Positions 4,501 through 32,000 are shown, counted from the stretch's first letter. The stretch: DNA of 32,000 nt from a bacterium (GCA_963652165.1 CAVJRM010000021.1:3489-35488), one strand, 5' to 3'. Notes: a model not told the origin generated them from the letters alone. Numbers and translations are program-made.

Positions 4501-5574
4501 GACCTGTCCTCCGCTTTCGATCGCATCAGCCGGTTTACTAACGTGGCTTTTGTTCGTTTCGCTGATACGGTTCAGGAAGATACCGTTACTGTAAACGCCA
4601 TCAGTGGCTTCATTGGCAATGTTAAAATAGTATGATGGGAAAACGATAGAGCCTTTGCCTTCGGTCGGATTCTCTTTTACAGTTACCTTGAAGGTAGTAA
4701 GAGGCTCGCCGGTTTTCATCTTATCTGTTGTCCATGTGTTTGTATTTTTTAAAGCACTGACCCTTTTTAATGGAAAGCACACGACACGCCAATCTTTAAC
4801 ATCTTCTATATCGTAATGATCGGCAACATAGCTCGGAAGTCCATCGCCGTTGTCCTTTATGCCGTCTCCTGTTGCGGCATCAGTCAGGTGGAAATATGGG
4901 TAACTTGAACCGACATAAGCAATATATGGGGCATAATAGTAGTCGCTAATTTTATTTTTGCCATTAGGACTATACTCAGTTTCACTTGAGAATTTATTGT
5001 CTGCAAAGACGGGACTACTGCTGGAACCGACAGTATAAACATAATCTGTGCCGATGAAATTGTTGGTAAAAAAGGCTTTTACATCGCCAAAATCAAAGCC
5101 TGTACTAGCTGTAGCAGAACTATCAATAGTCTCAAAGTCAAAAAAGTTACCGTCAAACGCAAAAGCGACGTCGGTTATCTTGCAGTTATACGTGTAGTTG
5201 GTCATATAGTAAACTTCGATATAAAGATCTGTACCTTTTTCAAGTTTGCCTACCTTGCTTTTATCGATGTAATTTTTAGTGGAGCTATCTGCACCGAGAG
5301 TATAGTACCTTGCACCATAGTAGACAAATGAGTTTGTGGCAGTTTCACTACCACCCGTAGCTAAACAAAGCTCCTCATAAGTGGGGATTTCGTCTTCATA
5401 CCCGGCTTCACTTGAGTGAGTCAAATCATTGACCCCTTTTGCGAGACTCACTGTCTCTTTACCGTATGTAAGAGAACCGTCTGCACTTGCGCTTAAGCCG
5501 AGGCCCACTGCCATGGTGCTGATAAGCATTGCCATGCAAAGAACTAAGCTAAGCATTTTCTTTGAAATTTTCAT
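1591..5574 (-). CDS. Very large secreted or cell-surface protein (1327 aa), family not recognised
   Basis: Long uninterrupted ORF with an AGGAGG SD 7 nt upstream. Signal peptide MKISKKMLSLVLCMAMLISTMAVGLGLSASA. The composition is rich in Y, N, D, T and G, typical of beta-rich adhesin-like proteins. There is no LPXTG-type motif. Confidence 0.85.
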   Translation of the reverse strand: MKISKKMLSLVLCMAMLISTMAVGLGLSASADGSLTYGKETVSLAKGVNDLTHSSEAGYEDEIPTYEELCLATGGSETATNSFVYYGARYYTLGADSSTKNYIDKSKVGKLEKGTDLYIEVYYMTNYTYNCKITDVAFAFDGNFFDFETIDSSATASTGFDFGDVKAFFTNNFIGTDYVYTVGSSSSPVFADNKFSSETEYSPNGKNKISDYYYAPYIAYVGSSYPYFHLTDAATGDGIKDNGDGLPSYVADHYDIEDVKDWRVVCFPLKRVSALKNTNTWTTDKMKTGEPLTTFKVTVKENPTEGKGSIVFPSYYFNIANEATDGVYSNGIFLNRISETNKSHVSKPADAIESGGQVKPTYFINDCNCDFSLPPIEVTFVDGAQTFKASINGGAAITQENAATGTIPTEKNIENLYGWEDKNHNIIDLANTTVTEEMTLYAVKKSQKVNVTLSLKNSQGEVYYECTNLPDALKTKYNAVYSADNHTITMTVPITGLTSEELNSITLSGGSFLGWVNSELEEFNGTFNSTESNQTFIVKSGIPVKYLPIGNTVEFKDESIGPGYEEQEWSTLFYYDVSYGSKLTNKDLIAIQKEINKNYDALNAGTGAAAYGTDIQICIKNEVTDEETAKDSSKIEVSKKLSESEPQYAAFSVGTTYNDTVTQDTIGNYVFGKTADVIYINTAVQYDYEIKIPTIDDEGNVQYKESQTKSVYYLAIGQKDAGYKKASQYTAFIWNESLSKVEVTSINNESKAIATFTAPTVTYDTNIYHLAYTDEKGNSLSNVSAGKNIIEFSRVKDENGNAIKNCASYVCYITPQKTVYHIGIKVDGNIYATGKPYYYGDEIDLSAFSELATQKIVHRKYAEGKDELYEENKIALTDLYNDGAAVGKAGYSLTAITYNTGSGTIDFKNDDDPKLVIDEALVKTATVEDNYPNKYISFDAEWVGSDYTFNIYYQNANSEWVHAITKTFSTGDDITYDALIGSGSTLDQKIKDDHPYGSVPGTSLTKEPGGSAWDNIKAQDAANENNSIDLYIKYTVDGRYVMVDYNNAYDENGEPNKDKEPGISKKLDYGTVIYDPSYTADSGTERPFANEYLIDEGFKISSVPDQKQETDEKGNKKYNPVYVDVVDEEGNPVYEGDTIKQEPKTDEDGNIVYDYSSPIMSDSKSKEEARPYRNCEFNGFKVYYVDGVYSSIADLPDKSEWKEGFNDQNETGAQHLYTTVILQVQWIADSDFLFRVYDDQGNISFAMGKDYSRHYWNVNGYPCNKGENVLVEDPETYYCIFLKLVKEEGNGYYLKAKTIERMRLNMVQPTTFLFGTLWPLIKKLLLG

Positions 5575-5868: not shown

Positions 5869-5924
5869 AAATGTGGAATGTGAAATGAAATGTCCCGTAG
5901 GGACACTATTCCACATTCCACATT
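5869..5924. repeat. Intergenic mosaic repeat, copy A (short form)
   Basis: AATGTGGAATGTG (5870-5882) and CACATTCCACATT (5912-5924) are a perfect 13-bp inverted repeat. They enclose the hairpin GTCCC-GTA-GGGAC (5892-5904). The same modules occur in copies B, D and E. Confidence 0.7.
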
Positions 5925-5925
5925 G

Positions 5926-5951
5926 AAAAAGCTCCCCGAAGGGAGCTTTTT
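5926..5951 (-). terminator. Bidirectional rho-independent terminator ending the infC-rpmI-rplT operon
   Basis: AAAAAGCTCCC-CGAA-GGGAGCTTTTT lies 14 nt past the rplT stop. The 26-nt sequence is identical to 11359-11384. Confidence 0.8.
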
Positions 5952-7341: not shown

Positions 7342-7462
<121 letters not shown>

Positions 7463-7497
7463 AGAGAACGCAACGGCGTTTTCTTGAATGCTTGTCT

Positions 7498-7526
7498 ATT
7501 ATAGTACGCAAAAACGCCTTTGTCAA
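7498..7526 (-). promoter_or_regulatory. Consensus sigma-A promoter driving the 5S rRNA gene
   Basis: The reverse strand reads TTGACA (7521-7526), exactly 17 nt, then TATAAT (7498-7503), about 35 nt upstream of the mature 5S 5' end. Confidence 0.7.
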
Positions 7527-7547
7527 GCATTATTTTCAAATTTTTTG

Positions 7548-8196
<649 letters not shown>

Positions 8197-8480
8197 TAAA
8201 AAGCTAAAAAATTAAATATTAAAATTCTATGAATTGACATTTAAAGCACAAATTCAATTTTAACTTTTCAAATTTTTCAACCTTGAATTTCATACTTTAT
8301 TCACAAAATGTTTTCGGCTTTTTAAGCTCATTGATTTATCAATGATGTGTTCGGGGTTTGGGGATAAATCTCCCCAACAAGCTGCATTGTGTGAACATAT
8401 GCCTTGCTTGCTGAGTATTATGATAAGGTGAATTTCAAATTTGCAGCGTTGTTATCTCTTGCAAACTCTGTTTCACCACT

Positions 8481-9734
8481 TCAATTTACGGAATATTTTG
8501 TACCTCTGCCGTTGCCTTCTGTTTTGATGCAATGCTTATCAATCATTGAATTTATTTGGCGAATTACTTTATTTTTACTGAAGCCTGTTGCCTCAGCAAT
8601 CTCCGAGCTTGAAAGAAGTCTGCCTTTATTAAGCAAATCATAAATTACTTTTTCATCTGTTGTAAGTTTAATTTTGTATGTTGTAACGGGTAAAACAACA
8701 GTTACAGAGTTTGGTGTGGTTTCAAACCTCGGCTTAATATCAAAATCGGAATAAAGAGCGTTTATTCTTCTTATTCCCGTTCCGAACATTTCAATATAGT
8801 GAAGGCGAAAAAACAAATTGCCGATAATCGGATTTCTCAGGCTTGAAACATCGCCTTTAAGATATTCTTCCTCACTTATTCCCGAAGGCAAGCCACCGGG
8901 CGAAATGATTTCAATTCTGTCCGGAAACATCATAACACGAATATGTGAATCCACATCCCATGATCTGTGAATAATAGCATTGGCAATTGCTTCTCTGAAT
9001 GCATCTTCCGGTATGAGTTCAACTTTTTTTCTCTCTGTTCCTTCAATTTTTTCATAAACATAATATCTATCAAACATATCAATTGCTTTGTGGTATTGTT
9101 CAAGAACGGATATATTTGTATATGTTTCTCTGTCTAAAAATTCGTTTATGCTTTCGCCGAATTTAACAGCATCCACGCCATAGAAAGAATTTACATCAGC
9201 TACAAGGGCGGCAGCATTGTTATACTTATTATCGGATTCAAAAAAGCCCAAGGTTTTCAGCACATCTTTTGTAACATTGTCTATTCCGAGTTTTTCGGAA
9301 AGCTCTTTTTTCAGTGCCTCAAATGTAAGATTTTCATCGGGATATGAGAGCTTTTCAAAATACAATTTATCACTGCTTAGAATAAGTCGCCTTAGTTCTA
9401 TTGTATCAACTTCAACGGTAGAAGTGTCGTTTCGTTTGTATGCTTTCCCTTTGTAAAAATACGGTTTGAACAAGCCCTCTTCAACATTGAGCGTAACTGT
9501 TTTAGATTTTTTATTTATTGAAATGCTGTATTCCGGCTTCGGCTTTATACTGTCGTTTATTTTATTTTCTATATCAAGTGCAAATTCTTCAGGGCTATCA
9601 ACACCGATATTTTCGCCTTTATCCGATACACCGAAAATGATTTTTCCGGCGCCGAAGTTTGCAAATGCACTTACGGTTTTTAAAAAAGTTGATGTTTTAT
9701 CCGATTTAAATTCCAAAAATTTTGATTCTTTCAT
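8481..9734 (-). CDS. AlbA_2 (Schlafen-like, 'divergent AAA') + HATPase_c_4 + C-terminal winged-HTH protein, COG2865-type putative regulator
   Basis: 417 aa from MKESKFLEFK with a GGAGGG SD 6 nt upstream; the upstream M in the ORF track lacks an SD. The N-terminus ESKFLEFKSDKTSTFLKTVSAFANFGAGKIIFGVSDKG is typical of AlbA_2. The middle REAIANAIIHRSWDVDSHIRVMMFPDRIEIISPGGLP...FGTGIRRI is typical of the RecG-C/HATPase_c_4 domain. The C-terminus KVIYDLLNKGRLLSSSEIAEATGFSKNKVIRQINSMI is a wHTH. Confidence 0.85.
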   Translation of the reverse strand: MKESKFLEFKSDKTSTFLKTVSAFANFGAGKIIFGVSDKGENIGVDSPEEFALDIENKINDSIKPKPEYSISINKKSKTVTLNVEEGLFKPYFYKGKAYKRNDTSTVEVDTIELRRLILSSDKLYFEKLSYPDENLTFEALKKELSEKLGIDNVTKDVLKTLGFFESDNKYNNAAALVADVNSFYGVDAVKFGESINEFLDRETYTNISVLEQYHKAIDMFDRYYVYEKIEGTERKKVELIPEDAFREAIANAIIHRSWDVDSHIRVMMFPDRIEIISPGGLPSGISEEEYLKGDVSSLRNPIIGNLFFRLHYIEMFGTGIRRINALYSDFDIKPRFETTPNSVTVVLPVTTYKIKLTTDEKVIYDLLNKGRLLSSSEIAEATGFSKNKVIRQINSMIDKHCIKTEGNGRGTKYSVN

Positions 9735-9776
9735 TTCGTTCCCTCCTTGCTGAAATAATCGTACCACAAATAAGGC

Positions 9777-9806
9777 AAAAATGCAACGAAAAAATTATCG
9801 TTGCAT
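9777..9806 (-). terminator. Terminator-like hairpin about 40 nt upstream of the AlbA_2 gene start
   Basis: ATGCAACGA (9781-9789) and TCGTTGCAT (9798-9806) form a 9-bp stem. On the reverse strand it is followed by TTTTT (plus-strand AAAAA at 9777-9781). Confidence 0.5.
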
Positions 9807-10035
9807 TTTCATCGCTAAAATTTATCGTAAATCTTTAATCTTCCACAAGAATCACATTATAAACATGTTCAATTTGAGCCGGATTGTAGCTTTTTCATAA
9901 AATTCCCTCCTCAAAAACAATTAGAGAATCCAATGGCGGTAACCACCAAGAATTATATGATTACCGCCTCTTTATTTGTCAGTACAATTCAGCCGGTTGC
10001 CAAACCTATGTACCGAAAATATTTATAATTCAAAA

Positions 10036-10749
10036 TTAAAATGCTTCGCCGAGTATTTTATCCATCTGTTGCTTTTCGTCGGATGTTAATGTATATGTTT
10101 TGCTGTTTCCGATTACACCGGTTGCAGAGTCGTAGTAGTATGTTCTGTTATCGCTTGAAGATAAGTCGCAGATAGAAATAGTGTAATCTTTATTTCCCGA
10201 AAATGCATTGCTGCTCCAGCTCTTGCCGTCTTCTTTAAATTTTCCGTTTTCGTCAGACAAAAGATTGATTAAAAACGTTTGAGTGCTGCCGGATGCTTTT
10301 GTTTTTTTGCCGTCTTTCTCTACATATATGCTGTATTCCGAATTAAACCATGCGGTAGTTGAAACGGCAGTTTGAGAGCTTTGAGTTTTATCTTTTTCGG
10401 TTTTATCAACTTTTGAGGATTCTTTTACTTTTTCTTTTGCTTTTTCGGTAGATTCTTTTTTGCTATCATTTTTTGCTTTTTCGGTTGTTGCAGCTTTTGT
10501 GCCTACATTCACCGACTCTTTCGGCTTTGTTTGTGCAACGGTTTCTTTTTCTTCATTTTCAGAAGAATTATCTTCCGAGAAATCTTCTGTTGTTTCAATG
10601 ATTTCGTTATCAGTATCATTTTCAGTTGATGTGTCTGAAATTACAGATGTATCACTTGAAGTGTCGGTATCGGTTGATTTAATTGCACCGCAAGATGCTA
10701 ATGCGAAGATTAAAGTTGAAATTAAAAGTATTATTGATATTTTTTTCAT
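10036..10749 (-). CDS. Lipoprotein with a low-complexity S/T/D/E/K-rich linker
   Basis: MKKISIILLISTLIFALASCG contains the lipobox LASC. A long acidic and lysine-rich linker precedes a roughly 110-aa C-terminal globular part. The start is placed at the second ATG (10747-10749), which has a GGGGTGA SD. Confidence 0.8.
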   Translation of the reverse strand: MKKISIILLISTLIFALASCGAIKSTDTDTSSDTSVISDTSTENDTDNEIIETTEDFSEDNSSENEEKETVAQTKPKESVNVGTKAATTEKAKNDSKKESTEKAKEKVKESSKVDKTEKDKTQSSQTAVSTTAWFNSEYSIYVEKDGKKTKASGSTQTFLINLLSDENGKFKEDGKSWSSNAFSGNKDYTISICDLSSSDNRTYYYDSATGVIGNSKTYTLTSDEKQQMDKILGEAF

Positions 10750-10840
10750 TGTAATCACCCCTCATTATACAGTGCATATTTTCTTTGATTTTGTTGCAAG
10801 TTTATTCCATATTAAAATCATAAATGAGAAAATAGCACTA

Positions 10841-11008
10841 TTAAGACACTTGACTTAGCTCTCTGTCAATTTCAAATGAATATTCATAAGGAGTTTGCTT
10901 GCCTTCTTTTGTTACATAGCCGGTAAAATTAAAAACCGTTTTTCCGTTTTCACACTCGGCAGTAGCCTTGACTTGTCGAGGAGTTTCATAGGAATTTACT
11001 TTTAGCAT
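10841..11008 (-). CDS. Possible small ORF (55 aa), hypothetical
   Basis: My own translation gives MLKVNSYETPRQVKATAECENGKTVFNFTGYVTKEGKQTPYEYSFEIDRELSQVS*. The SD is weak (AGGA). It is below the ORF-track cutoff and I see no recognisable similarity. Confidence 0.3.
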   Translation of the reverse strand: MLKVNSYETPRQVKATAECENGKTVFNFTGYVTKEGKQTPYEYSFEIDRELSQVS

Positions 11009-11200: not shown

Positions 11201-11357
11201 CGAATCCCTGCCAACACAGGAGAGGCAAAACCGCTTCCTGTCAATTCCTACGTTTCTATACAATCGGATTTTGCACGGCAAAATCCCCTTCATTCCACAT
11301 TTCACATTCCACATTTCACATTTCCGAAGGATTGTTCCACATTCCTAATTCCACATT
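11201..11357. repeat. Intergenic mosaic repeat, copy B (inverted relative to copies C, D and E)
   Basis: Contains the hairpin GGATTTTGC-ACG-GCAAAATCC (11266-11286), TATACAATCGGA, CTGTCAATTCCTAC (the reverse complement of the GTAGGAATTGACAG module), CCACATT/TCACATT heptads, and CACATTTCCGAAGGATTGTTCC (shared with copy D). Confidence 0.75.
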
Positions 11358-11384
11358 AAAAAAGCTCCCCGAAGGGAGCTTTTT
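11358..11384 (-). terminator. Bidirectional rho-independent terminator abutting the stop codon of the SpoIID-like gene
   Basis: AAAAAAGCTCCC-CGAA-GGGAGCTTTTT. The 26-nt core is identical to 5926-5951, and its T-run overlaps the TAA stop (11383-11385). Confidence 0.8.
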
Positions 11385-22910: not shown

Positions 22911-22944
22911 CCCTCCTCCCGGATTATTGCCGGCGTGGAGGGCA
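22911..22944 (+). terminator. Stem-loop after the hydrolase gene
   Basis: GCCCTCC (22911-22917) pairs with GGAGGGC (22938-22944), with an inner CCGG/CCGG pairing. The T-tract is poor. Confidence 0.45.
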
Positions 22945-22947
22945 CTT

Positions 22948-23078
22948 CAATTAGCAATTAGCAATTAGCAATTAGCAATGAAGGGGATTTTGCTGTGCAA
23001 AATCCGAATATATAGAAAAGTAGGAATTGACAGAGAGCAATCGCCTCCCCTGTGCAGTCGCTGCGCTCAATTCATAAT
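22948..23078. repeat. Intergenic mosaic repeat, copy C
   Basis: The terminus TCAATTAGC is followed by (AATTAGC)x4 (22950-22977), AATGAAGG, the hairpin GGATTTTGC-TGT-GCAAAATCC (22986-23006), GTAGGAATTGACAGAGAGC, and GTCGCTGCGCTCAATT. Confidence 0.75.
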
Positions 23079-23139: not shown

Positions 23140-25059
23140 ATGAAAGACGGATTCATAAAAGTTGCAGCGGTTACTCCGAAAGTTAAGGTTGCAGATGTTA
23201 AATATAACGGCGAAATTATCCGAAATTACATGAAAGAGGCTTCCGAAAAGGGGGCCAAAATCGTTGTATTCCCCGAGATGTGCATTACCGCCTATTCCTG
23301 CAACGATTTGTTTTTGCAGGATATTCTGCTTAAAGAGGCAAAGGAAGAGCTTTATAAGATCGCAAAATTTTCCGAGAATCTTGACGGCCTGTTTTTTGTG
23401 GGGTTGCCCTTCGAATACAAAGGAAATTTATATAACGTGGCTGCGGGAATCAGCGGCGGCAAAATCCTCGGCCTTGTACCGAAATCATACATCCCCGGCT
23501 ATAACGAATTTTATGAAACCCGTCAATTTACTTCCGGTTTTGGCGTTAATGCCTGCATAAATACCGGGGATTATGAATTTGCTCCCCTCAGCACAAATTT
23601 AATTTTCGAATGTGAAAATATGCCAAGCGTAAGAGTTGCGGCGGAAATTTGCGAAGATTTATGGACTCCCAATCCCCCAAGCATTTCTCATGCCCTTGCG
23701 GGAGGGAATATTATTGTAAATCTTTCCGCATCAAACGAAATAACCGGCAAAAGCATTTACCGCAGGGATCTGGTCAGCGGTCAGTCCGCCCGCCTTATTT
23801 GCGGATATATTTACGCTTCGGCAGGTGAGGGCGAATCCACCCAAGATGTAGTTTATTCCGGCCATAATATTATTGCGGAAAACGGCCATGTGCTTTCGGA
23901 TTCCGGCACTTTCGCAACAGGTATAACCTATGCCGAAATCGATGTGCAGCACCTTGAGAGCGACAGGCGCAGAATGACCACATTTAATACTGTTGAAGCA
24001 GAAGATTATGAAACTTTAAGCTTCTCTTTGAATTTTGAAGAAACCGAGATTTCAAGATATATTGACCCCGCTCCCTTTGTGCCCTCGGATAAAGAGCACA
24101 GAGATGTAAGGTGCAACGAAATTTTGACCATTCAGGCAATGGGCCTTAAAAAGAGGCTGGAGCATATAAATTGCAAAACTGCCGTTATAGGTATTTCCGG
24201 CGGCCTCGATTCCACCCTTGCCCTGCTTGTAACGGTTAAGGCTTTTGATTTGCTTTCCCTTGACAGAAAAGGGATTATCGCCGTAACCATGCCCGGTTTC
24301 GGCACCACTGACCGCACTTACGATAACGCTCTTAAGCTTATAAAATCCTTAGGGGCAGAGCTTAAAGAAATAAGCATTGTGCCGGCAGTTAAACAGCATT
24401 TTGCGGATATCGGTCAAGATGCGAATAATTTTGATGTAACTTACGAAAACAGTCAAGCAAGGGAACGCACCCAAATTCTTATGGATGTGGCCAATAAAAA
24501 TAACGGCATCGTAATAGGCACCGGTGATCTTTCGGAACTTGCTTTGGGCTGGGCCACCTACAATGGAGATCATATGTCCATGTACGGCGTAAATTCTTCC
24601 GTGCCCAAAACCCTTGTGCGCCACCTTGTTCGCTACTATGCAGACACTTGCTCTGATGAAGAATTAAAATCAACTCTTTATGATGTGCTTGATACCCCCG
24701 TTTCACCGGAGCTTTTGCCCCCGGAGGACGGAAAAATATCCCAAAAAACCGAGGATTTGGTAGGTCCTTACGAGCTTCACGATTTCTTCCTCTATCACAT
24801 GCTCCGTTTCGGCTCATCACCTGCCAAAATTTACAGGCTTGCAAATATAGCCTTTAAGAATACCTACAGCGGCGAATTTATTTTGAAATGGGAAAAGACT
24901 TTCTATCGCAGATTTTTCGCCCAGCACTTCAAGAGAAGCTGCCTTCCCGACGGCCCCAAAGTCGGCTCTGTTGCCGTTTCTCCCAGAGGTGATTTGAGAA
25001 TGCCCTCAGACGCCTGCGGAAAGCTGTGGATGGAAGAGCTAAACTCAATTAGCAATTAG
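23140..25059 (+). CDS. nadE: Glutamine-dependent NAD+ synthetase (nitrilase-like glutaminase domain + synthetase domain)
   Basis: 639 aa. KIVVFPEMCITAYSCNDLF...AAEICEDLW is the CN-hydrolase domain with catalytic E and C. GISGGLDSTLALLV is the PP-loop. The last codons and the stop lie inside repeat copy D. Confidence 0.95.
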   Translation: MKDGFIKVAAVTPKVKVADVKYNGEIIRNYMKEASEKGAKIVVFPEMCITAYSCNDLFLQDILLKEAKEELYKIAKFSENLDGLFFVGLPFEYKGNLYNVAAGISGGKILGLVPKSYIPGYNEFYETRQFTSGFGVNACINTGDYEFAPLSTNLIFECENMPSVRVAAEICEDLWTPNPPSISHALAGGNIIVNLSASNEITGKSIYRRDLVSGQSARLICGYIYASAGEGESTQDVVYSGHNIIAENGHVLSDSGTFATGITYAEIDVQHLESDRRRMTTFNTVEAEDYETLSFSLNFEETEISRYIDPAPFVPSDKEHRDVRCNEILTIQAMGLKKRLEHINCKTAVIGISGGLDSTLALLVTVKAFDLLSLDRKGIIAVTMPGFGTTDRTYDNALKLIKSLGAELKEISIVPAVKQHFADIGQDANNFDVTYENSQARERTQILMDVANKNNGIVIGTGDLSELALGWATYNGDHMSMYGVNSSVPKTLVRHLVRYYADTCSDEELKSTLYDVLDTPVSPELLPPEDGKISQKTEDLVGPYELHDFFLYHMLRFGSSPAKIYRLANIAFKNTYSGEFILKWEKTFYRRFFAQHFKRSCLPDGPKVGSVAVSPRGDLRMPSDACGKLWMEELNSISN

Positions 25060-25271
25060 CAATGAGCAATTAGCAATGAAGGGGATTTTGCTCCGCAAAA
25101 TCCGATTGTATATTATCGCAGGAACTGACAGTGAGCTTTATACAATCGGAGCGTAGCGACCCGACATTACTCATTACTCATTACTCATTGTCCCTACGGG
25201 ACATTTCGTTCCACATTTCCGAAGGGCCGTTCCCCATCCCACATTGGGTGAAGCCTTTAATTGCTAATTGA
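25045..25271. repeat. Intergenic mosaic repeat, copy D; a complete unit with inverted termini
   Basis: Left end TCAATTAGCAATTAG (25045-25059). The right end, reverse-complemented, is TCAATTAGCAATTAA (25257-25271). AATTAGC/AATGAGC heptads run 25047-25074. Hairpin GGATTTTGC-TCC-GCAAAATCC at 25083-25103. A 12-bp inverted repeat pairs TCCGATTGTATA (25101-25112) with TATACAATCGGA (25139-25150). (CATTACT)x3 at 25165-25185. Hairpin GTCCC-TAC-GGGAC at 25190-25202. CACATTTCCGAAGG module. Confidence 0.8.
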
Positions 25272-26105
25272 TTTAAACGCAATATAGCTGAAAAACGTTC
25301 CTTTTTCATTTAGCATAGGGTAGGCATTATTTGAAATATAATTTTTTCCGTTTGTAACCGTAAAGCCGGAGCTTGTAAGCTCAAGGCCCAAGGACGCGCC
25401 CTCTTTTACACCTGTGGCAGTGTAAAGAAGTGTATAATCCCCTTCGATTTTAAACGGCGCCATGCCTCCCGCCGTCACGATTACAGCGGACGGCTCAAAA
25501 TTCAATTCAATCGTATTCGCGTTTTCTCCCGTTCCGTAATATATTCCACCCACATAGGGGCTGTTAAGAAATTCTTGCTGCTTCTCTGAAAGGTGGATTT
25601 TTTCATTTCTGATATGACTGCCGCAAAGTAAAGTTTTATCAAGGAAAGAGGGGAAAACAAGGCTTGAGGATTCCGCAGGGCAAAGAGTGGAAGATACAAT
25701 TGCAAAAGCCGTAAGCACAAAGGCGTCCGTGTCTCTGTCCTCGGAGATTTTTTCACAGCCGGATGTGGTAATATTAAGCCCGGAATCAAAAGTCAGGCAG
25801 TCTATAATATCCGCAAAGGTTTCGTGGCAGGCCTTACCCCCCATGGAGTAAGGCACATGAATGTAAAATCTCAGGTTTATTTTTGCTTTTCGGCAATATT
25901 CTTCCGTTTCAAGCACGGTGCTCTCGGTGCTTTCGAAAGCATCCTCAATATCTATGCCGCCTATTCCCACCGCAACTGTGATTTTCCTTAAGGGCACCGC
26001 TTTTCTGATTGGCGGAAATTCCGTTAGAAATTTCATATCTTTAAATTCTTCTCTTTCGCTGAGCCACTCCGCTATTTTTGAGGGCATGGCGCTCATTTCG
26101 TTCAT
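25257..26105 (-). CDS. Hypothetical protein (282 aa), last gene of the phage-like module
   Basis: Its ATG overlaps the upstream stop (ATGA), so it is translationally coupled to the connector-like genes. I recognise no family. It ends ...AFKSISN*, with the final codons encoded by the repeat terminus. Confidence 0.7.
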   Translation of the reverse strand: MNEMSAMPSKIAEWLSEREEFKDMKFLTEFPPIRKAVPLRKITVAVGIGGIDIEDAFESTESTVLETEEYCRKAKINLRFYIHVPYSMGGKACHETFADIIDCLTFDSGLNITTSGCEKISEDRDTDAFVLTAFAIVSSTLCPAESSSLVFPSFLDKTLLCGSHIRNEKIHLSEKQQEFLNSPYVGGIYYGTGENANTIELNFEPSAVIVTAGGMAPFKIEGDYTLLYTATGVKEGASLGLELTSSGFTVTNGKNYISNNAYPMLNEKGTFFSYIAFKSISN

Positions 26106-26440
26106 TCATCTTCCTCCTCTGTCATTTTACGAACAACAGCCCAAATATAAAGCACTTCGTCTTTAAGATAAACTTTTTCGCCCCTGTCGATTCTGTATTT
26201 TTCCTCGGAGCATTCTATATATCCCTCGGTATTTGTCACATCCACATCGGGAGGGCCTATATATAAATAATAGCCCTCGGGATTATATCCTATCTCCGTG
26301 TTTACCCCGTAAAGATACATTTTGTTTTTGTATCTGAGGGGATTTATATATGCCCGCATTTCAAAAAGGGTTTCCCCCTGCTCCGTTTTAAGGGAACAGG
26401 GGCGGGCATATTTATTCATAAGCTGCCCGAAAGCTTTCAT
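26102..26440 (-). CDS. Possible head-closure or head-tail joining protein (112 aa)
   Basis: The call rests on position (second gene after the capsid gene), size, and overlapping start and stop codons. Similarity to SPP1 gp16 / HK97 gp7-type proteins is only suggestive. Confidence 0.5.
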   Translation of the reverse strand: MKAFGQLMNKYARPCSLKTEQGETLFEMRAYINPLRYKNKMYLYGVNTEIGYNPEGYYLYIGPPDVDVTNTEGYIECSEEKYRIDRGEKVYLKDEVLYIWAVVRKMTEEEDE

Positions 26441-26799
26441 ATTCTCACCTGCTTAAAAGAAAATGTTGTGTCTTTAATCAGTGAAGAGGAGTTTTCCGTG
26501 GCAAGATCAAGCTGTTCCTTTGCCTTTGCAAGAAGAGAGACCGTATCGGAATTTACTGTAACGTCACCGGCTTTAAAGGAAGTAACTCCTTCCCCGGAAT
26601 AAAAATTTCTCATGCAAAGGCGATGATTTACCATAGCCGCACCTAAGGCAATAAGACGAATATCATTTAAATCCGCTTTTTCTCTTGCGGAAAGAACCAG
26701 CTCCTCGCAAACGGTTTCACAAAGGGATAAAATTACGCTTTCCTCTGCGTAAAATCCGTAAACTTCACCGAAATATTTGTAAATTGAATTTTTATCCAT
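26437..26799 (-). CDS. Possible gp6-like head-tail connector/adaptor (120 aa)
   Basis: It lies immediately after the capsid gene (TAATG overlap at 26797-26801). It appears helical, and its size and position are typical of head-tail adaptor proteins. Confidence 0.5.
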   Translation of the reverse strand: MDKNSIYKYFGEVYGFYAEESVILSLCETVCEELVLSAREKADLNDIRLIALGAAMVNHRLCMRNFYSGEGVTSFKAGDVTVNSDTVSLLAKAKEQLDLATENSSSLIKDTTFSFKQVRI

Positions 26800-27800
26800 T
26801 ACTTTGAAAGCACCTTTGCCGCGCCGTCTGCGATTTTTGCAAAGCCTGCAGTGCAGCTGATAACAGCCCTTTCAAGCTGACGGTCAATGAGCTTGTCGTA
26901 CTCAGTGGTAATATCCCCGGCTTTAACCATTTCAAGTGCGGAATTTTTATCAATGCCCAAAATTTTACCTTCGCCGAGGGCAGAAGATTTAAGAAGCCTT
27001 GAGCCAAAGGGTGTAAGAGCTTTTCCGGTGCCGTGGAATGTGAGACCTGCCGCCGCATCCCTGAATTGAGACATATTGAGAATTGCGGCCATCATATCCG
27101 GAGAAGCTATCATTGTGTTCATTTCATAAGGGTCAAAGCTGTTCCAAAGGGTAATAAGATCACTGTAATCAATATTTGCTCCGGCGATTTTAATAACTTC
27201 CGCTTTGTTATCGTTACCGTCGCCGTTTTCAAGCACATTCACCGCATCTTTAAGCAAGGTGCGGGAAATATATGCGCCGATTTGCCTTAAAGTAACGGTA
27301 AATAAATCAAGGCGCTGATATTTAATAGCTTCATAAGAAGCCACAAGGCTTCTGCCTCTCTTTCGGAGTGTTACCAGATTATCCTTTGTATGAATTGAGG
27401 TTTCGGGAATGTATGCACCCTCTTTTACGGTTTTAAGCTCCTTTTCATCCTCAGTGGGAACGGAACTTATGGAGCGATAATCAAGAGAATTTATTTTTGT
27501 GGTGGCGGCAACAATATCTTTAAGAATATCCGCCTGCTCCATACCCTGCTTCACAGCCCTTGAAACATACTCCGGGAAAAGCACGGCGCTGTCTGAGGTT
27601 TGAAAGAATTTTTCCACCGTGTCACTGCCCGGACCGCTGACCTTTATATTAAATCTTTTCAGCTGGCGCTGATAAGCATCAAGCTTTTCAAGAGAAGTGC
27701 CCTTATAATTCTCGTCCGGATCGATTCCCGAAAGAGCTTTTGTAAAATTACCTGCTGAGTAAAGTCCTTTTTCAAGATGTATATTATCAAAATTTGACAT
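26799..27800 (-). CDS. Major capsid protein (HK97 fold expected), 333 aa
   Basis: It follows the protease. Sequence features ...VLFPEYVSRAV...LDYRSI...LVTLRKRGRSLVASYEAIKYQRLDLF...FGSRLLKSSALGEGKILGIDKNSALEMV... are typical of siphophage major capsid proteins. GGAGGA SD. Confidence 0.8.
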   Translation of the reverse strand: MSNFDNIHLEKGLYSAGNFTKALSGIDPDENYKGTSLEKLDAYQRQLKRFNIKVSGPGSDTVEKFFQTSDSAVLFPEYVSRAVKQGMEQADILKDIVAATTKINSLDYRSISSVPTEDEKELKTVKEGAYIPETSIHTKDNLVTLRKRGRSLVASYEAIKYQRLDLFTVTLRQIGAYISRTLLKDAVNVLENGDGNDNKAEVIKIAGANIDYSDLITLWNSFDPYEMNTMIASPDMMAAILNMSQFRDAAAGLTFHGTGKALTPFGSRLLKSSALGEGKILGIDKNSALEMVKAGDITTEYDKLIDRQLERAVISCTAGFAKIADGAAKVLSK

Positions 27801-27813
27801 TTTTCATTCCTCC

Positions 27814-28155
27814 TTAAAATATAAATGTAATTGTTTTTGCTTCTTCATCAATGGAAATAACGTAAATAGGTCTGCCTTCATCACTTACTTCAAGCTCTCC
27901 CTCGGCGCCAATGCTAACGATGTTTTTTCCCAATGAGATTTCAGCAGAAGAATTTTCAGCCGTTATAATTCCTCGGTAGCAAACAGCGGCGTAGCTTTCA
28001 TCTGAGGATATAACACAGCCTAAAAAGTCGCCGGAGCTTATGTTTGATGCTACTTTTCCGTTTTCGCTAATAGCTACAAATTTACCCTTTTCAATTTTAT
28101 TGTCAGTCATAAATGTGGCAATTTCGGTGCCGCAGCCGTTAAAAGATACATTCAT
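27814..28155 (-). CDS. Small beta-rich protein between protease and capsid genes (DUF2190-like, possible decoration or scaffold accessory)
   Basis: 113 aa with an AGGAGA SD. Its position between the protease and the capsid gene is where DUF2190-type proteins usually sit. The assignment is tentative. Confidence 0.5.
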   Translation of the reverse strand: MNVSFNGCGTEIATFMTDNKIEKGKFVAISENGKVASNISSGDFLGCVISSDESYAAVCYRGIITAENSSAEISLGKNIVSIGAEGELEVSDEGRPIYVISIDEEAKTITFIF

Positions 28156-28173
28156 TTTTATTTCTCCTTTTTA

Positions 28174-29013
28174 TTAAATTATATATTCATTATTATTTTC
28201 TTTTCTGTCTTCTTCCTTGTTGTTAATCGGTTCAAGCTGCCTTACAAGGGGAAGATTTTTTTCACTTTGTGCTTTAAATGCATTTCTCATCTCTCTGAGC
28301 TCCCCAATGGGCAAAAGGGCGCAAATTTTTTTAATCCCCGTAAAATTCGGCATTACAAGGGCAGAATATTTTATAATATCCCCGGTAATATCCTCTCTGT
28401 ACATGGCGGCAATGTCTTCTTGCTCCTTGGGAGTGTAGGATTTAACGACCCCCGCATTTTTCTGGGCAGGCACCGCCACAAAAGACCATTCATAAGCATC
28501 TTCGGGCTCGCACAAATGATGGCAGCAAATTTTGCCACCGTATTCTTTGCCTTTTATATGCTCACAGCCCTCGGTTTTAATGTCTTTTCCGCAAATTGAG
28601 CATTTAACGCTTTTCACACTGCAGCCAACGCTTGTTTCTTTCTTTATACCTGCATCGATTTCCGCAATAAGGTCTTTGTTTGTTTCCGTTCTCACCATAT
28701 ATGCCTTAGCTTTAACGCAGGTGTAAATTTCTCCGTCAGCTGTTTTACGTGTAGGGTCATTTTCAACCCATGCGGAGTAAATTCTCGCATTCTGATTTTT
28801 ACCGCTCATATTATGGTCAAAGATTCCCGTTTTACCTACAAATAATTTTGCAAGTTTTTCAAGGCTCTCCACCGTGAATTTTTCTCTGTCCCTGTCAATT
28901 TCGTTATCGCAGAGAATAAGGGAAAAGGTGTAAATTTCCTCCTCTGTCATTTCTTTTCGGGCAAAGGTTCCTATTTGCTCCAATTCCTCTTTGCTGATTT
29001 TGTTTTCTTTCAT
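28174..29013 (-). CDS. HK97-family prohead serine protease with a Cys-rich insertion and a C-terminal extension
   Basis: 279 aa from MKENKISKEE, with a GGAGG SD 7 nt upstream. GIFDHNMSG is the His motif, KKETSVGCSV is the Ser motif, and YEWSFVAVPAQKNAGV matches the E.S.V..PA motif of Peptidase_S78-type proteases. The insertion reads CSICGKDIKTEGCEHIKGKEYGGKICCHHLC. Confidence 0.78.
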   Translation of the reverse strand: MKENKISKEELEQIGTFARKEMTEEEIYTFSLILCDNEIDRDREKFTVESLEKLAKLFVGKTGIFDHNMSGKNQNARIYSAWVENDPTRKTADGEIYTCVKAKAYMVRTETNKDLIAEIDAGIKKETSVGCSVKSVKCSICGKDIKTEGCEHIKGKEYGGKICCHHLCEPEDAYEWSFVAVPAQKNAGVVKSYTPKEQEDIAAMYREDITGDIIKYSALVMPNFTGIKKICALLPIGELREMRNAFKAQSEKNLPLVRQLEPINNKEEDRKENNNEYII

Positions 29014-29015
29014 TA

Positions 29016-30146
29016 TCAAACCTCCTTGTTGATTTTTTCCGCCTGTGCTCTGTAAAGCATGGCCTTGCTCTGCTCCACTTCATCCTGAAGGGTAATATCA
29101 TCCCATTCAACCGTAACATCGGGAAGATACCCAAGGCTTGAAAGATATAAGCTTGCAATTTTCATAATTACCGGTGTAAGTATTCGCCTGTAAGCCTCAA
29201 GCTCGCTTGTTAAAGCGTCCGCTTGCTGGGTGCTCATTCGCTCCGTGGTGCTCCAAGAAAGCCCAAGCATAAAGGGGGGCAAACCTGTTTTTGCAACAAT
29301 CTGCTCCAGCATTTGTCTGACGGGAACTTCACTGTCCATAATTTGTGAATCCGCCCCAATGGCTTTTATTTGCACGTCACCTACTGCCACAAAATCTCTT
29401 GTTTCTCTGCCGTTTCTCATGGCGGATGCCCATTCTTCGGCAATTTGAGATGCCCTTTCCCGTGCAAAAGCTTTTTCCGTGGAGTCGTTTTTCGGGTTAT
29501 AAGTAACCGCAAATCTTAAATTTCCCGCCCTCTCCCAATTTTGGCCGATGCTCTCATAAATCTTCAGCAAAATATTGCTTACAAAAGGTAACCCCTTAAG
29601 CATAGAGCTGCCTGTGAGGGAGCCGGGTTCGGGATTTAAAACGCTTACAAGGCACAACTCCGGCCGAGGAATTTTTACTGCGCCGCCTATATCACGTACA
29701 TAAATATCAATGCCGAAATTATCCTCTGCCCGCCTGAATTCAATATTATCAAGAGGGGAATTATATAGGGCTGCAGGCCTGCCGGATATATCCGTAACAA
29801 TTTCCCCCACTGCTGTGCCGCAAGTGAGGAGCTGCTCAAGATAGCTTTCCGTAAAAGAATTAATTCCCTGCCTGTTTCCACCAACGGGAACGGTGAGAAG
29901 AAAATTATCAAGAGCTTTTTGAGCCTCGTTACCCTTGCATTTAACTGTGTAACCGCCTGTAAGACGAACTATTTTGAATATAGCCGCATCAATCACGGGA
30001 ACTGCTTCACGCAAGGAATAATAAAGCCTGTTTTGTGCCGTGCCTAAAGGCACATACCCATCAAGAGCCGTAAAAGGATGGCTGTTTTTGGGCTGAGTTA
30101 CCGGGGTTGCGATTTTACCGCTCCCCCGCTTTTTAAAAATTGACAT
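29016..30146 (-). CDS. Phage portal protein (376 aa)
   Basis: It is the first gene after terL, with an AGGAGG SD. The N-terminal region ...NRLYYSLREAVPVIDAAIFKIVRLTGG... and its size are consistent with small siphophage or GTA-type portals. Confidence 0.8.
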   Translation of the reverse strand: MSIFKKRGSGKIATPVTQPKNSHPFTALDGYVPLGTAQNRLYYSLREAVPVIDAAIFKIVRLTGGYTVKCKGNEAQKALDNFLLTVPVGGNRQGINSFTESYLEQLLTCGTAVGEIVTDISGRPAALYNSPLDNIEFRRAEDNFGIDIYVRDIGGAVKIPRPELCLVSVLNPEPGSLTGSSMLKGLPFVSNILLKIYESIGQNWERAGNLRFAVTYNPKNDSTEKAFARERASQIAEEWASAMRNGRETRDFVAVGDVQIKAIGADSQIMDSEVPVRQMLEQIVAKTGLPPFMLGLSWSTTERMSTQQADALTSELEAYRRILTPVIMKIASLYLSSLGYLPDVTVEWDDITLQDEVEQSKAMLYRAQAEKINKEV

Positions 30147-30166
30147 GTTAACCTCCTTGTTTAGTT

Positions 30167-30440
30167 AATGTGGAATGGTGGGCAGTGGATAGTGGGCAGT
30201 GGGTAGTGGGTATAATAGCAGAAACTGACAGTGAGCAATTAACAATGAGCTTTATTTAATGAGCAATGAGCAATGAGTAATGAGTAATGAAGGGGATTTT
30301 GCCGTGCAAAATCCGATTGTATAGAAACGTAGAAATTGACGGAGAGGTTGTCAGCTTGCGTAGCAAGCCAATACAAACGGAGCGAAGCGACCCACCATTG
30401 CTAATTGCTAATTGCTAATTGCTAATTGAGCGTCAGCGAC
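30167..30440. repeat. Intergenic mosaic repeat, copy E; the longest copy, inside the phage-like operon
   Basis: Seven heptads run from AATGTGG to GGTATAA (30167-30215). Then GCAGAAACTGACAGTGAGC, (AATGAGY)x4 (30258-30285), and the hairpin GGATTTTGC-CGT-GCAAAATCC (30294-30314). Then GTAGAAATTGACGGAGAG, GAGCGAAGCGACCC, (GCTAATT)x4 (30400-30427), and GAGCGTCAGCGAC (30428-30440). Confidence 0.8.
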
Positions 30441-31692
30441 TAATGCTCATCACACAAAATCCGTCCTCCCCCTCATTCATTAAAACGGTAGAAACAAAAT
30501 ATCTTACATCGTCCATGGCGTGGTCGTTTTCTTTAATAACCGTATCCCCCTGTGAATCGGGTTTCCACCTGTAAAGGCCGAATTCCCTGATAGTATCTTT
30601 ACATTCCGGGGAAAAATAAATTCTTTCTTCCCTTAGGCAATCCTGCACTCGGCGGATGCCGTCAATCACATCGTTTTTTGCTTTAATCACTCTGAATTTG
30701 CCTTTTCTCTGAATAAGTTCAATAAAGCTTGCGGCCGACGGGTCCACAATCACCGCCCTGATTGGCAAAGAGCCTGCCAAGGTGCAAAGAGCTTCATAAT
30801 GCTCTCCGTCCGTTTTTCTGAATCCGGATTCCCGTGAATCAAAATAATATTCCTTAATTCTGTACCATTTTTCCCCGCACCTGCCCCAAAGGCCGAAAGA
30901 TGAAGGGTTCACCGTGCCGTAATCGCAGGAAATATAATATTCGCCGAAGTTTTCCGGGGGAATTTTTATGTGCCTGTCCTCGCTGAACATGGGGTAAACA
31001 CAGCCCTCTGCCGCCACCCATAAGCCTAAAATGTAGCGGTCACGAAAAACGCCGGTATATAATCGCTCATATCTTGCTTTGATTTCCGGGGAAAGAGAAG
31101 GGTTATCTCCCATTGTAAAATGCAGATAAAGACAGTTTTTTTCATCCGCCCTTTTTACCCATTCTTCACAAAACCAATGCATAGGGTGCTCCGGGTTGCA
31201 ATTAAACCAAAATTTTGCGCCCGTCACCGAGCACCTTGCCAAAGCTTGCTCCGCAAATGAGCGGGGCATAAGAGCAATTTCATCAAGCATAACACCGGAT
31301 AAGGTCATTCCCTGAATGAGGGAGGCAGAGCTTTCGTCCCTGCCCCCGAAAAGCCAAAAATAATTTTTATGGCCGAATGCTCTTACTTCAATCATGTTTC
31401 TGCTGAGTTTTTCTTCGTATCCGATTCCCAGAGATTTAAGCACCGGAAAAACGGAGGTAACAATATTTCGCCTTACGGATGCAATGGTTTTACCGCAGAT
31501 TGCAAAGGAGGAGCCATCAAAATTGAAAGATGCCCAAGTTACAAAAGATACGGTCATGCAAAGGGTTTTTCCGCTTCTCACGGCCCCGTCGCAGATTATG
31601 CCGTCCTTGTCTTTATATTCACTTTGAGGCAGCCACCAGCTGAGCACTTTCATTTGCTTCGGTGAAAAAGATTCAAAACCTCCGGCGCTCAT
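30433..31692 (-). CDS. Terminase large subunit, PBSX/XtmB-like family
   Basis: 419 aa. Walker A is DGAVRSGKT. GVMLDEIALM is Walker B-like. ...FWFNCNPEHPMHWF...LYLHFTMGDNPSLSPE... is typical of PBSX-type TerL. Its ATG overlaps the terS stop (ATGA). Confidence 0.92.
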   Translation of the reverse strand: MSAGGFESFSPKQMKVLSWWLPQSEYKDKDGIICDGAVRSGKTLCMTVSFVTWASFNFDGSSFAICGKTIASVRRNIVTSVFPVLKSLGIGYEEKLSRNMIEVRAFGHKNYFWLFGGRDESSASLIQGMTLSGVMLDEIALMPRSFAEQALARCSVTGAKFWFNCNPEHPMHWFCEEWVKRADEKNCLYLHFTMGDNPSLSPEIKARYERLYTGVFRDRYILGLWVAAEGCVYPMFSEDRHIKIPPENFGEYYISCDYGTVNPSSFGLWGRCGEKWYRIKEYYFDSRESGFRKTDGEHYEALCTLAGSLPIRAVIVDPSAASFIELIQRKGKFRVIKAKNDVIDGIRRVQDCLREERIYFSPECKDTIREFGLYRWKPDSQGDTVIKENDHAMDDVRYFVSTVLMNEGEDGFCVMSISR

Positions 31693-32000
31693 TCTTCATC
31701 ATCCGCCTTTTCAGCAGAACGCATAAGAGCCTTTATAAATTCACTGCTCCTGTCGCTGTCTTTATCTCCAAAAGCCATAAGGCATTGGATAGCTTTAAGC
31801 CTGTCTGCGAATTTAATTTCGGAAATGCAACCGGCGGTGCGCTTAATATCAACCACATTCAAAAGATTTAATCTTTTAAGCTGCCTTTCCGTTAAATCGT
31901 TGCCATGCATAAGCAGGCGAATAGGGTCACTTACCGAACCTAAGGCAAGTTGCTTCAAAACTTCACCTATTTCTTCATTTATATCATTTTTATTTTTCAT
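31689..32000 (-). CDS. Terminase small subunit (candidate); possibly truncated by the window edge
   Basis: 103 aa beginning at an ATG on the last three bases of the window. It overlaps terL by 4 nt. The segment LKRLNLLNVVDIKRTAGCISEIKFADRLKAIQCLMAF resembles the C-terminal part of small terminases. Confidence 0.6.
   Translation of the reverse strand: MKNKNDINEEIGEVLKQLALGSVSDPIRLLMHGNDLTERQLKRLNLLNVVDIKRTAGCISEIKFADRLKAIQCLMAFGDKDSDRSSEFIKALMRSAEKADDEE

Follow-up and report, generated by a model that had tools for sequence, protein, structure and literature searches.

What keeps the head half of a phage in a bacterial chromosome when no tail follows it? The question is raised by a stretch of 32,000 nucleotides (GCA_963652165.1, CAVJRM010000021.1:3489-35488; in the following called the window), which carries on its minus strand, at 25257-32000, a cassette of nine intact and co-directional open reading frames (ORFs): terS, terL, a portal gene, a protease-like gene, p113, the gene of the major capsid protein (MCP), p120, p112 and p282. 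Most of them overlap, by 4 nt at terS/terL, portal/protease, p120/p112 and p112/p282 and by 1 nt at MCP/p120, and nadE converges on p282. A first-pass annotation of this sequence had described the gene set correctly, including its stop before tail tube, tape measure and baseplate, none of which is encoded in the window, and had proposed either a capsid-forming satellite or a domesticated particle system. We favour the second: with a probability of about 0.6 a PBSX-like phage with a contractile tail has left the cassette behind as a remnant, which is fixed in the chromosome, maintained by the host, reduced to head, packaging and neck genes and similar to a gene transfer agent (GTA), i.e. a viriform.

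It had also been suggested to look for the module in related genomes, and there it does recur. Using the MCP as query and one genome per species, we found close MCP relatives encoded in at least 562 species-representative genomes. The best 80 of these at least 562 matches were inspected. They belong to Acutalibacteraceae, 'Candidatus Fimenecus', Oscillospiraceae and unnamed Clostridia metagenome-assembled genomes from animal and human guts, and most of them have the nine genes in the same order. The 3′ end of the cassette in relatives is always either p282 or a protein of 143-150 amino acids (aa) equal to its N-terminal domain. With the same order in dozens of species, the cassette is far from a chance run of ORFs. 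Exact-sequence searches gave no match for TerL and MCP, and for the portal protein only matches on contigs below 2 kb; the closest relative found, L165 (86-88% nucleotide identity), was reached via homologues of p112 and p282. In IMG/VR 342 contigs carry related capsids, many of them being 10-14 kb long, and many of these 'viral' contigs are just the cassette. One 'Bacteriophage sp.' entry (L001, GenBank MT835508.1, 11766-41002) holds the short cassette form beside ABC-transporter and MarR genes, and after the cassette an opposite-strand cluster with a 1037-aa ORF, which might be a separate prophage.

The cassette is under purifying selection. Across species the median ratio of nonsynonymous to synonymous substitution rates (dN/dS, pairwise Nei-Gojobori, with dS near saturation) lies between 0.09 and 0.23 in eight genes and reaches 0.36 in p113, similar to the values of 0.03-0.27 for flanking host genes. 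A better test of selection is the comparison of the window with L165. Here dS is 0.4-1.2, the overall dN/dS is 0.067, and the single genes range from 0.006 to 0.11 except for p113 with 0.28. The constraint is strongest on terminase, portal and capsid, and therefore the selected activity involves filling capsids with DNA.

These values bear on the possibility that the cassette is a prophage remnant which has recently lost its tail by deletion and is now decaying. Its ancestry is indeed phage-like, one locus (L017) has lost the 3′ part of terS through to p113, and a dispersed repeat has invaded the gap between terL and the portal gene. With 286 bp this repeat-filled gap is the only large intergenic gap of the cassette, compared with about 10-60 bp in orthologues elsewhere. 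However, the same insertion is present in L165, and therefore it is old and the genes downstream of it are still under selection. In addition, end point and gene order are the same across dozens of species, catalytic residues are invariant, and the co-divergence with host genes described below argues against the cross-species matches being recent horizontal copies. Ongoing decay is thus very improbable, and the earlier statement that the genes are not degenerating stands, no inactivating changes being found in the catalytic residues. In L017 (9738-12549) the flanks are of the L020 type and a terS stub is left beside the capsid gene. The dispersed repeat itself consists of a core of about 90-100 nt between tandem heptamer arrays (CAATTAG, CATTACT, GTGGGTA, AATGAGC), occurs in both orientations and is also present between genes in the flanks of L165. 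In the window copies were found at 5877-5951, 7692-7726, 11233-11384, 22938-23040, 25036-25245 and 30178-30430.

Comparison with the neighbouring host genes indicates how the cassette is passed on. The identities of TerL, portal, MCP and p282 between species follow those of neighbouring host proteins with Spearman coefficients of 0.66-0.93, the exception being p282 versus GlgB (0.47). For TerL versus MgtE the coefficient is 0.92 and the mean identities are 0.80 and 0.79. Cassette and neighbours therefore diverge together and at similar levels, as expected for vertical descent with the chromosome. The flanking genes are housekeeping genes, encoding MgtE, GlyRS, YdjC, GH92, PrkC, GlgB, UxaC, GlpK, phosphoglycerate kinase, pyruvate kinase and others; they are common within sub-clades (e.g. 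MgtE on one side, YdjC/GH92/PrkC/GlgB on the other) and different between sub-clades. Assigned with Pfam, 127 non-redundant neighbours from about 70 loci include transporters, enzymes of glycolysis and biosynthesis, and tRNA synthetases.

The satellite reading has to be weighed against this background. It holds that the cassette is a mobile island which builds its own heads and steals its tails from a helper phage, like a capsid-forming phage-inducible chromosomal island (cf-PICI). The gene content does resemble the morphogenetic half of these islands, which has terS, terL, portal, protease, capsid and head-tail connectors of its own but lacks genes for tail and holin (PMC10085698), and a murine Pelethomonas element has been reported as 'resembling a capsid-forming satellite'. 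Moreover, the downstream neighbour differs between close relatives: after p282, L165 has a phosphoglycerate kinase gene where the window has nadE, and the homology of the two stops about 90 bp past the p282 stop codon (window 25060-25256 versus L165 8865-9204), with repeats at the junctions, which suggests a repeat-associated rearrangement beside the cassette. However, cf-PICIs are also defined by integrase, regulator and primase-replicase (PMC10085698), and this half is missing here. No recurrent integrase or recombinase is present among the 25 most frequent neighbour families of about 70 loci, where a single stray one would be possible; no AlpA/MerR-type regulator or primase-replicase is found in the flanks of relatives or of L165; and no conserved regulator lies upstream of terS, where the neighbours are unrelated host genes. 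Nor are there replication, tail or lysis genes near the cassette when 6-10 kb of flank are considered in about 70 species, or tail genes, lysis genes or an integrase in the annotation scans of the remaining 25 kb of the window downstream of the cassette. A mobile satellite would also not co-diverge with flanking host genes at host-like rates. The cassette moreover encodes a tail terminator, which helper tails already carry; it is fused to an adhesin-like module as described below. We consider a satellite quite improbable.

Because mobility genes are missing and the cassette co-diverges with its host, the domesticated, GTA-like nature is preferred. Two traits of GTAs are found: phage-derived structural and packaging genes lie in the chromosome without genes for replication, integration or lysogeny, and they have been inherited vertically under purifying selection over long host divergence. 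The window ends at terS, and its own upstream flank is inferred by proxy from L165, which has within 2.2 kb upstream of the cassette a 680-bp repeat-rich intergenic region, a small membrane protein and thioredoxin. This covers, for L165 in place of the window, what lies beyond position 32000, and neither an integrase nor a regulator nor a tail gene is found there. A tail module upstream of terS, as considered by the first-pass annotation, is excluded in the relatives by the locus maps and in L165 by this upstream region.

The packaging and head proteins can mostly be assigned to known families. TerS had been given as at least 103 aa long, as if cut by the window edge. Its ATG is the same in L165, where an in-frame stop precedes it, and therefore the protein is complete at 103 aa. 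Most TerS orthologues have about 159 aa with an N-terminal helix-turn-helix (HTH)-like segment, which according to the alignment is missing in the window, L165 and L020. Since the short TerS of window and L165 share 99% aa identity at a dS of 0.66 (dN/dS 0.006), the short form is maintained and not degenerating. TerL belongs to the PBSX family, as had been annotated (NCBIfam TIGR01547, 4e-58, 197.7 bits versus a cut-off of 105; phrog_2, 5e-44), and 55 species share without variation its Walker A (G36-T43), Walker B (D137/E138) and acidic residues (D257, D317, D390-D395). The portal protein matches PF04860 (1.8e-10) and phrog_30703 (4.7e-131) and has a dN/dS of 0.03 versus L165; the MCP matches PF25209 (2e-16) and phrog_3922 (1.1e-100).

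The protease-like protein had been named an HK97-type protease. Its match to XkdF/S78_2 (PF14550, E 0.005, 17.3 bits versus a cut-off of 24) lies below the gathering score, it matches phrog_16951 with 3.5e-96, and in 63 species H69, S130, C133, C140, C143, C152, H154 and C165 are invariant. On these sequence matches it is probably an XkdF-like prohead protease/scaffold, and the earlier name is weakly supported. The fastest-evolving of the nine genes is p113, with 60% identity to its L165 counterpart. Its product matches phrog_4588, 'virion structural protein' (1.7e-12), and gave only noise in a profile search against PDB sequences; its position suggests a head decoration protein. An apparent similarity between terS and p113 was rejected as an artefact of the L017 deletion remnant in the clustering.

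Next to the head genes lie those of the neck. For p120, which is kept in 55 of the loci taken from genomes, no Pfam, PHROG or PDB match was found, and Pfam scans of 60 p120/p112 orthologues gave noise. By position and size only, p120 is probably the head-tail adaptor, lying where the adaptor gene also lies in a PBSX-like gene order. For p112 a profile search against PDB sequences likewise yielded only noise. The structure predictions, run for database homologues and not for the window sequences themselves, were more informative. The AlphaFold 2 model of p112 (predicted local distance difference test, pLDDT, 81) has phage stoppers as top Foldseek matches (T1 9l0e_A, phiCD508 9gb5_G, SPP1 gp16 7z4w and RcGTA 6tba), with probabilities up to 1.0 and E-values of 0.012-0.2. 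According to this model, p112 is likely a stopper-like head-closure protein.

The last gene, p282, had been listed as unknown and the module as free of tail genes. The latter holds for tube and baseplate but not for p282, whose AlphaFold model (pLDDT 80) consists of two confident domains and a disordered linker. With Foldseek the N-terminal domain matches 2gjv (3.6e-6), the pyocin R2 collar, lambda gpU, T5 p142 and the SaPI1 neck, its TM score versus annotated tail terminators in BFVD reaches 0.82, and by hhalign it corresponds to the gene following the p112-type stopper in longer relatives (type B, see below; 97.8%, E 1e-12). The model thus gives this domain a tail-terminator fold.

The second half of p282 leads to fibres. 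In the linker a conserved motif, SHI..(E/D)..IHL(S/T), aligns with the N-terminus of the receptor-binding protein of Listeria phage PSA (6r5w, E 0.022). The C-terminal half matches by BLASTP (8e-13) a stand-alone 157-aa protein of L099, which is encoded after a Mu gp48-like baseplate gene. Such stand-alone homologues of 150-165 aa directly after the Mu gp48-like gene, i.e. in tail-fibre position, are found in longer relatives. A library-wide profile search with p282 returned four kinds of proteins: full-length fusions, lone N-domains, many lone C-modules, and giant proteins of 1,000-3,400 aa in which 6-16 C-domains follow one another in tandem (Pfam DUF7483 and DUF7361). P0258, P0269 and about 30 others are such giants. 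Because it occurs as lone modules and in tandem copies, the C-domain is regarded as a modular beta domain of the fibre/adhesin kind. Across species the N-domain has 85% identity and a dN/dS of 0.08, and the C-domain 55% and 0.22, which is the pattern expected from a conserved anchor with a variable binding tip.

The origin of this fusion can be approached through relatives with more tail. Contig maps reveal two further architectures, types B and C, built on a homologous head module. In type C (e.g. L121) the stopper is followed by a terminator-like gene, a short tail sheath (phrog_279, 1.7e-45), a small tube-sized protein, a 265-aa protein, a LysM/XkdP-like protein, a baseplate hub, a gp25-like wedge, Baseplate_J and a Mu gp48-like protein. 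Type B (e.g. L116, L099, L070) has the terminator-like gene and baseplate genes but neither a sheath nor a tape-measure-sized gene, and its last gene encodes the stand-alone fibre-position protein. The cassette of the window, type A, has neither sheath nor baseplate, and the two parts of its p282 correspond to the post-stopper gene and to the terminal gene of type B. In the simplest reading of these sequences a deletion of about 4.5 kb of baseplate genes appears to have fused the terminator gene to the fibre gene, and a later loss of the C-module appears to have given the short form, type As. The types would then appear as a series of tail reduction, from sheath and baseplate via baseplate only and the terminator-fibre fusion to the terminator only. 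In a midpoint-rooted neighbour-joining tree of the MCP, types B and C fall outside a large type A clade which includes the short forms. Because the rooting of this tree is insecure, it is mainly the fusion as the derived state that gives the series its direction. Type B is also found beside housekeeping genes, pyruvate kinase being encoded directly upstream in L070. L099, L116 and L070 (B) as well as L121, L161 and L142 (C) are compact (10.5-13 kb), with a short or no sheath and no long tape-measure gene; these relatives of types B and C could likewise be elements similar to GTAs.

By these sequence affinities the lineage is a contractile-tailed, PBSX-like one and not that of a podophage. In PBSX the genes for sheath, tube, tape measure and XkdP-U baseplate come after the head and neck genes xtmA-xtmB-xkdE-xkdF-xkdG-xkdH-xkdI-xkdJ. 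From terS to the terminator the cassette is colinear with PBSX. Compared via family models, its TerL falls in the PBSX family and its protease has the XkdF-type match mentioned above, and the longer relatives carry short sheath, LysM/XkdP-like, hub, gp25-like, Baseplate_J and Mu gp48-like genes in PBSX order. Like PBSX, the cassette is chromosomal and non-replicative. It differs in that window and type A loci lack genes for sheath, tube, tape measure, baseplate and lysis, in the fusion of the terminator to a fibre module, in size (6.7 kb versus about 28 kb) and in its host, an oscillospiralean and not a Bacillus. The particles of PBSX contain host DNA but kill cells instead of transferring genes, and the cassette might form a domesticated particle which serves not gene transfer but another purpose, e.g. 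PBSX-like killing or competition, released extracellular DNA, a decoy or defence. The selection seen on the cassette does not identify the benefit. However, killing of the PBSX type needs a contractile tail, which is missing here, and that the packaging enzymes are the most constrained points to the DNA content as the selected trait. We regard a function outside gene transfer as improbable.

The nearest functional precedent, by analogy, is FpGTA of Faecalibacterium prausnitzii, with 40-nm tailless-looking particles carrying 8.5-9 kb of DNA (PMC12946183). Both are chromosomal terS-terL-portal-protease-capsid operons of gut Oscillospirales, without replication or integration genes and conserved across species, and the TerS of FpGTA also has no DNA-binding domain. 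Homology of the two was rejected by family assignment, not by direct alignment: FpGTA operon I encodes an N4-gp56-family capsid, a Prp cysteine protease and a podovirus tail nozzle (PMC12946183, Supplementary Data 2), i.e. proteins of other families, and the cassette proteins have no NCBIfam match to the N4-gp56 capsid family. FpGTA is experimentally supported, and its fibre and lysis genes are known to lie in a second operon (PMC12946183), while the cassette is known here from its genes alone.

This second operon leads to another explanation, in which the cassette is part of a multi-locus GTA with a real short tail. An unlinked chromosomal locus would supply baseplate, fibre and lysis proteins, and p282 would be a collar or a terminator bearing whiskers, with other adsorption devices besides it. 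The two operons of FpGTA are 125 kb apart (PMC12946183), no lysis genes adjoin the cassette, and types B and C demonstrate that the head module is compatible with a baseplate. On the other hand, it would be hard to explain why the fibre module moved onto the terminator if a baseplate with its own fibre were still in use; the baseplate genes of type B are contiguous with the head genes and not dispersed; and none of the 21-kb loci seen has a second locus. We therefore consider such a split system unlikely, though a more serious contender than the rivals discussed so far.

With RcGTA from Alphaproteobacteria the cassette shares vertical inheritance, purifying selection, the lack of mobility genes, the head-neck order, a stopper fold of p112 resembling the RcGTA virion protein in 6tba, and a TerS with reduced DNA recognition. 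RcGTA differs by a complete siphovirus-type tail kept in the same cluster and by extra loci, no close relationship can be detected between the sequences, and the known RcGTA regulators have no identified counterpart here.

If the cassette is a host-maintained, GTA-like remnant, a particle may be envisaged as follows. TerS and TerL would load DNA via the portal into a small HK97-fold capsid, which would be built with the XkdF-like protease/scaffold and decorated by p113. As this TerS lacks the HTH DNA-recognition domain, packaging would probably not be element-specific. The filled head would be sealed by the p120 adaptor, the p112 stopper and the p282 ring. The terminator domain of p282 would cap the neck, and the fused, fast-evolving fibre/adhesin module would replace the whole tail as cell-binding device. 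Receptor binding next to the stopper could trigger DNA release, and uptake may then depend on the recipient. In its strongest form this means that the cassette encodes a complete, self-sufficient, tailless DNA-delivery particle, in which a terminator ring with adhesins binds the recipient and gates the stopper. We put this forward as a tentative idea, which is possible but in our estimate rather doubtful.

Several points weigh against the GTA-like remnant. We infer particle production, the content of host DNA and the binding of the p282 C-domain to a recipient all from genes, which are what is known of the cassette here. For the packaging of random host DNA, the only hint is the HTH-less TerS of this lineage; most orthologues keep the HTH domain, so that non-specific packaging is not family-wide. 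The evidence for DNA delivery is the retention of a fibre/adhesin-like module which evolves faster than its anchor, and a tailless particle would need to pass its DNA through a Gram-positive wall. The fold matches of p112 are marginal by E-value and p120 is placed by position only. No lysis genes which would account for release are found in the window or within 6-10 kb in relatives; the scans cover the surroundings of the cassette, and an unlinked tail, baseplate or lysis locus, such as operon II of FpGTA, may exist. Finally, L017 demonstrates that the cassette can decay, and the different neighbours in window (nadE) and L165 (phosphoglycerate kinase) that local rearrangement or movement occurs.

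Features of the cassette and its downstream neighbour (window positions)
Feature	Position	Strand	Description
terS	31689-32000	-	103 aa, complete
terL	30433-31692	-	419 aa, PBSX-family large terminase (ATPase and nuclease)
gap terL-portal	30147-30432	.	286 bp; dispersed repeat similar to repetitive extragenic palindromes or miniature inverted-repeat transposable elements (REP/MITE-like), with heptamer arrays; outside the machinery
portal	29016-30146	-	376 aa; PF04860, phrog_30703
protease-like gene	28174-29019	-	TTG start, alternative ATG at 29013; probably XkdF-like, Cys/His cluster
p113	27814-28155	-	phrog_4588; small virion protein
MCP	26799-27800	-	333 aa; HK97 fold family
p120	26437-26799	-	probable adaptor, by position and size only
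p112	26102-26440	-	likely stopper/head-closure protein (AlphaFold 2 and Foldseek)
p282	25257-26105	-	two-part, tail-derived protein
p282 N-domain	25677-26105	-	residues 1-143; predicted tail-terminator fold
p282 linker and C-terminal beta domain	25260-25676	-	C-domain residues 184-282; putative fibre/adhesin-like module
nadE	23140-25059		639 aa; NAD synthase and CN hydrolase domains; converges on p282

The other 25 kb of the window are also made up of housekeeping genes, such as those of ribosomal protein L20, IF3, sortases, CinA, ThiI, a cysteine desulfurase-type aminotransferase, DUF2804 and a SpoIID-domain protein. An Rfam scan of the window and five loci found 5S rRNA only and no riboswitch or leader near the cassette, and scans for promoters and terminators gave match counts at or near the level of shuffled sequence. 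The 5S rRNA gene is an orphan on the minus strand (7344-7460, in the region 7344-8196). Beside it lie three short ORFs, one of them holding no more than the C-terminal part of a NADAR domain, probably as a fragmented gene. The stretch from 8001 to 11000 has a GC content of 34% versus about 42% and may be a small acquired island; it encodes a Schlafen/AlbA_2-HATPase_c_4-winged-helix protein (8481-9767) and a 240-aa protein without family. Two further proteins, of 337 aa (215-1228) and 1327 aa (1591-5574), have no Pfam match.

A full-text literature search found no description of the cassette or of the terminator-fibre fusion, which is not proof of novelty. GTAs and viriforms are known as a kind, within which the cassette stands out by its unusual terminator-adhesin fusion and its wide, vertically inherited distribution. 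In annotation, cassettes of this type are listed under 'Bacteriophage sp.' or among the viral contigs of IMG/VR, whereas their behaviour is that of host genes. The gut is rich in virus-like particles with bacterial DNA, packaging of the GTA type has been reported from several other Oscillospirales in which the loci have not been identified (PMC12946183), and Acutalibacteraceae are among the families in the mouse transductome (bioRxiv 10.64898/2026.07.08.737213). For packaging of this kind the cassette is a testable candidate locus in at least 562 species. A tailless delivery particle, if true, would be a previously undescribed minimal architecture, and the cassette would then account genetically for a part of the GTA-like packaging of bacterial DNA in gut Oscillospirales. 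The apparent natural series of tail loss asks how little tail a capsid needs to be useful to its host.

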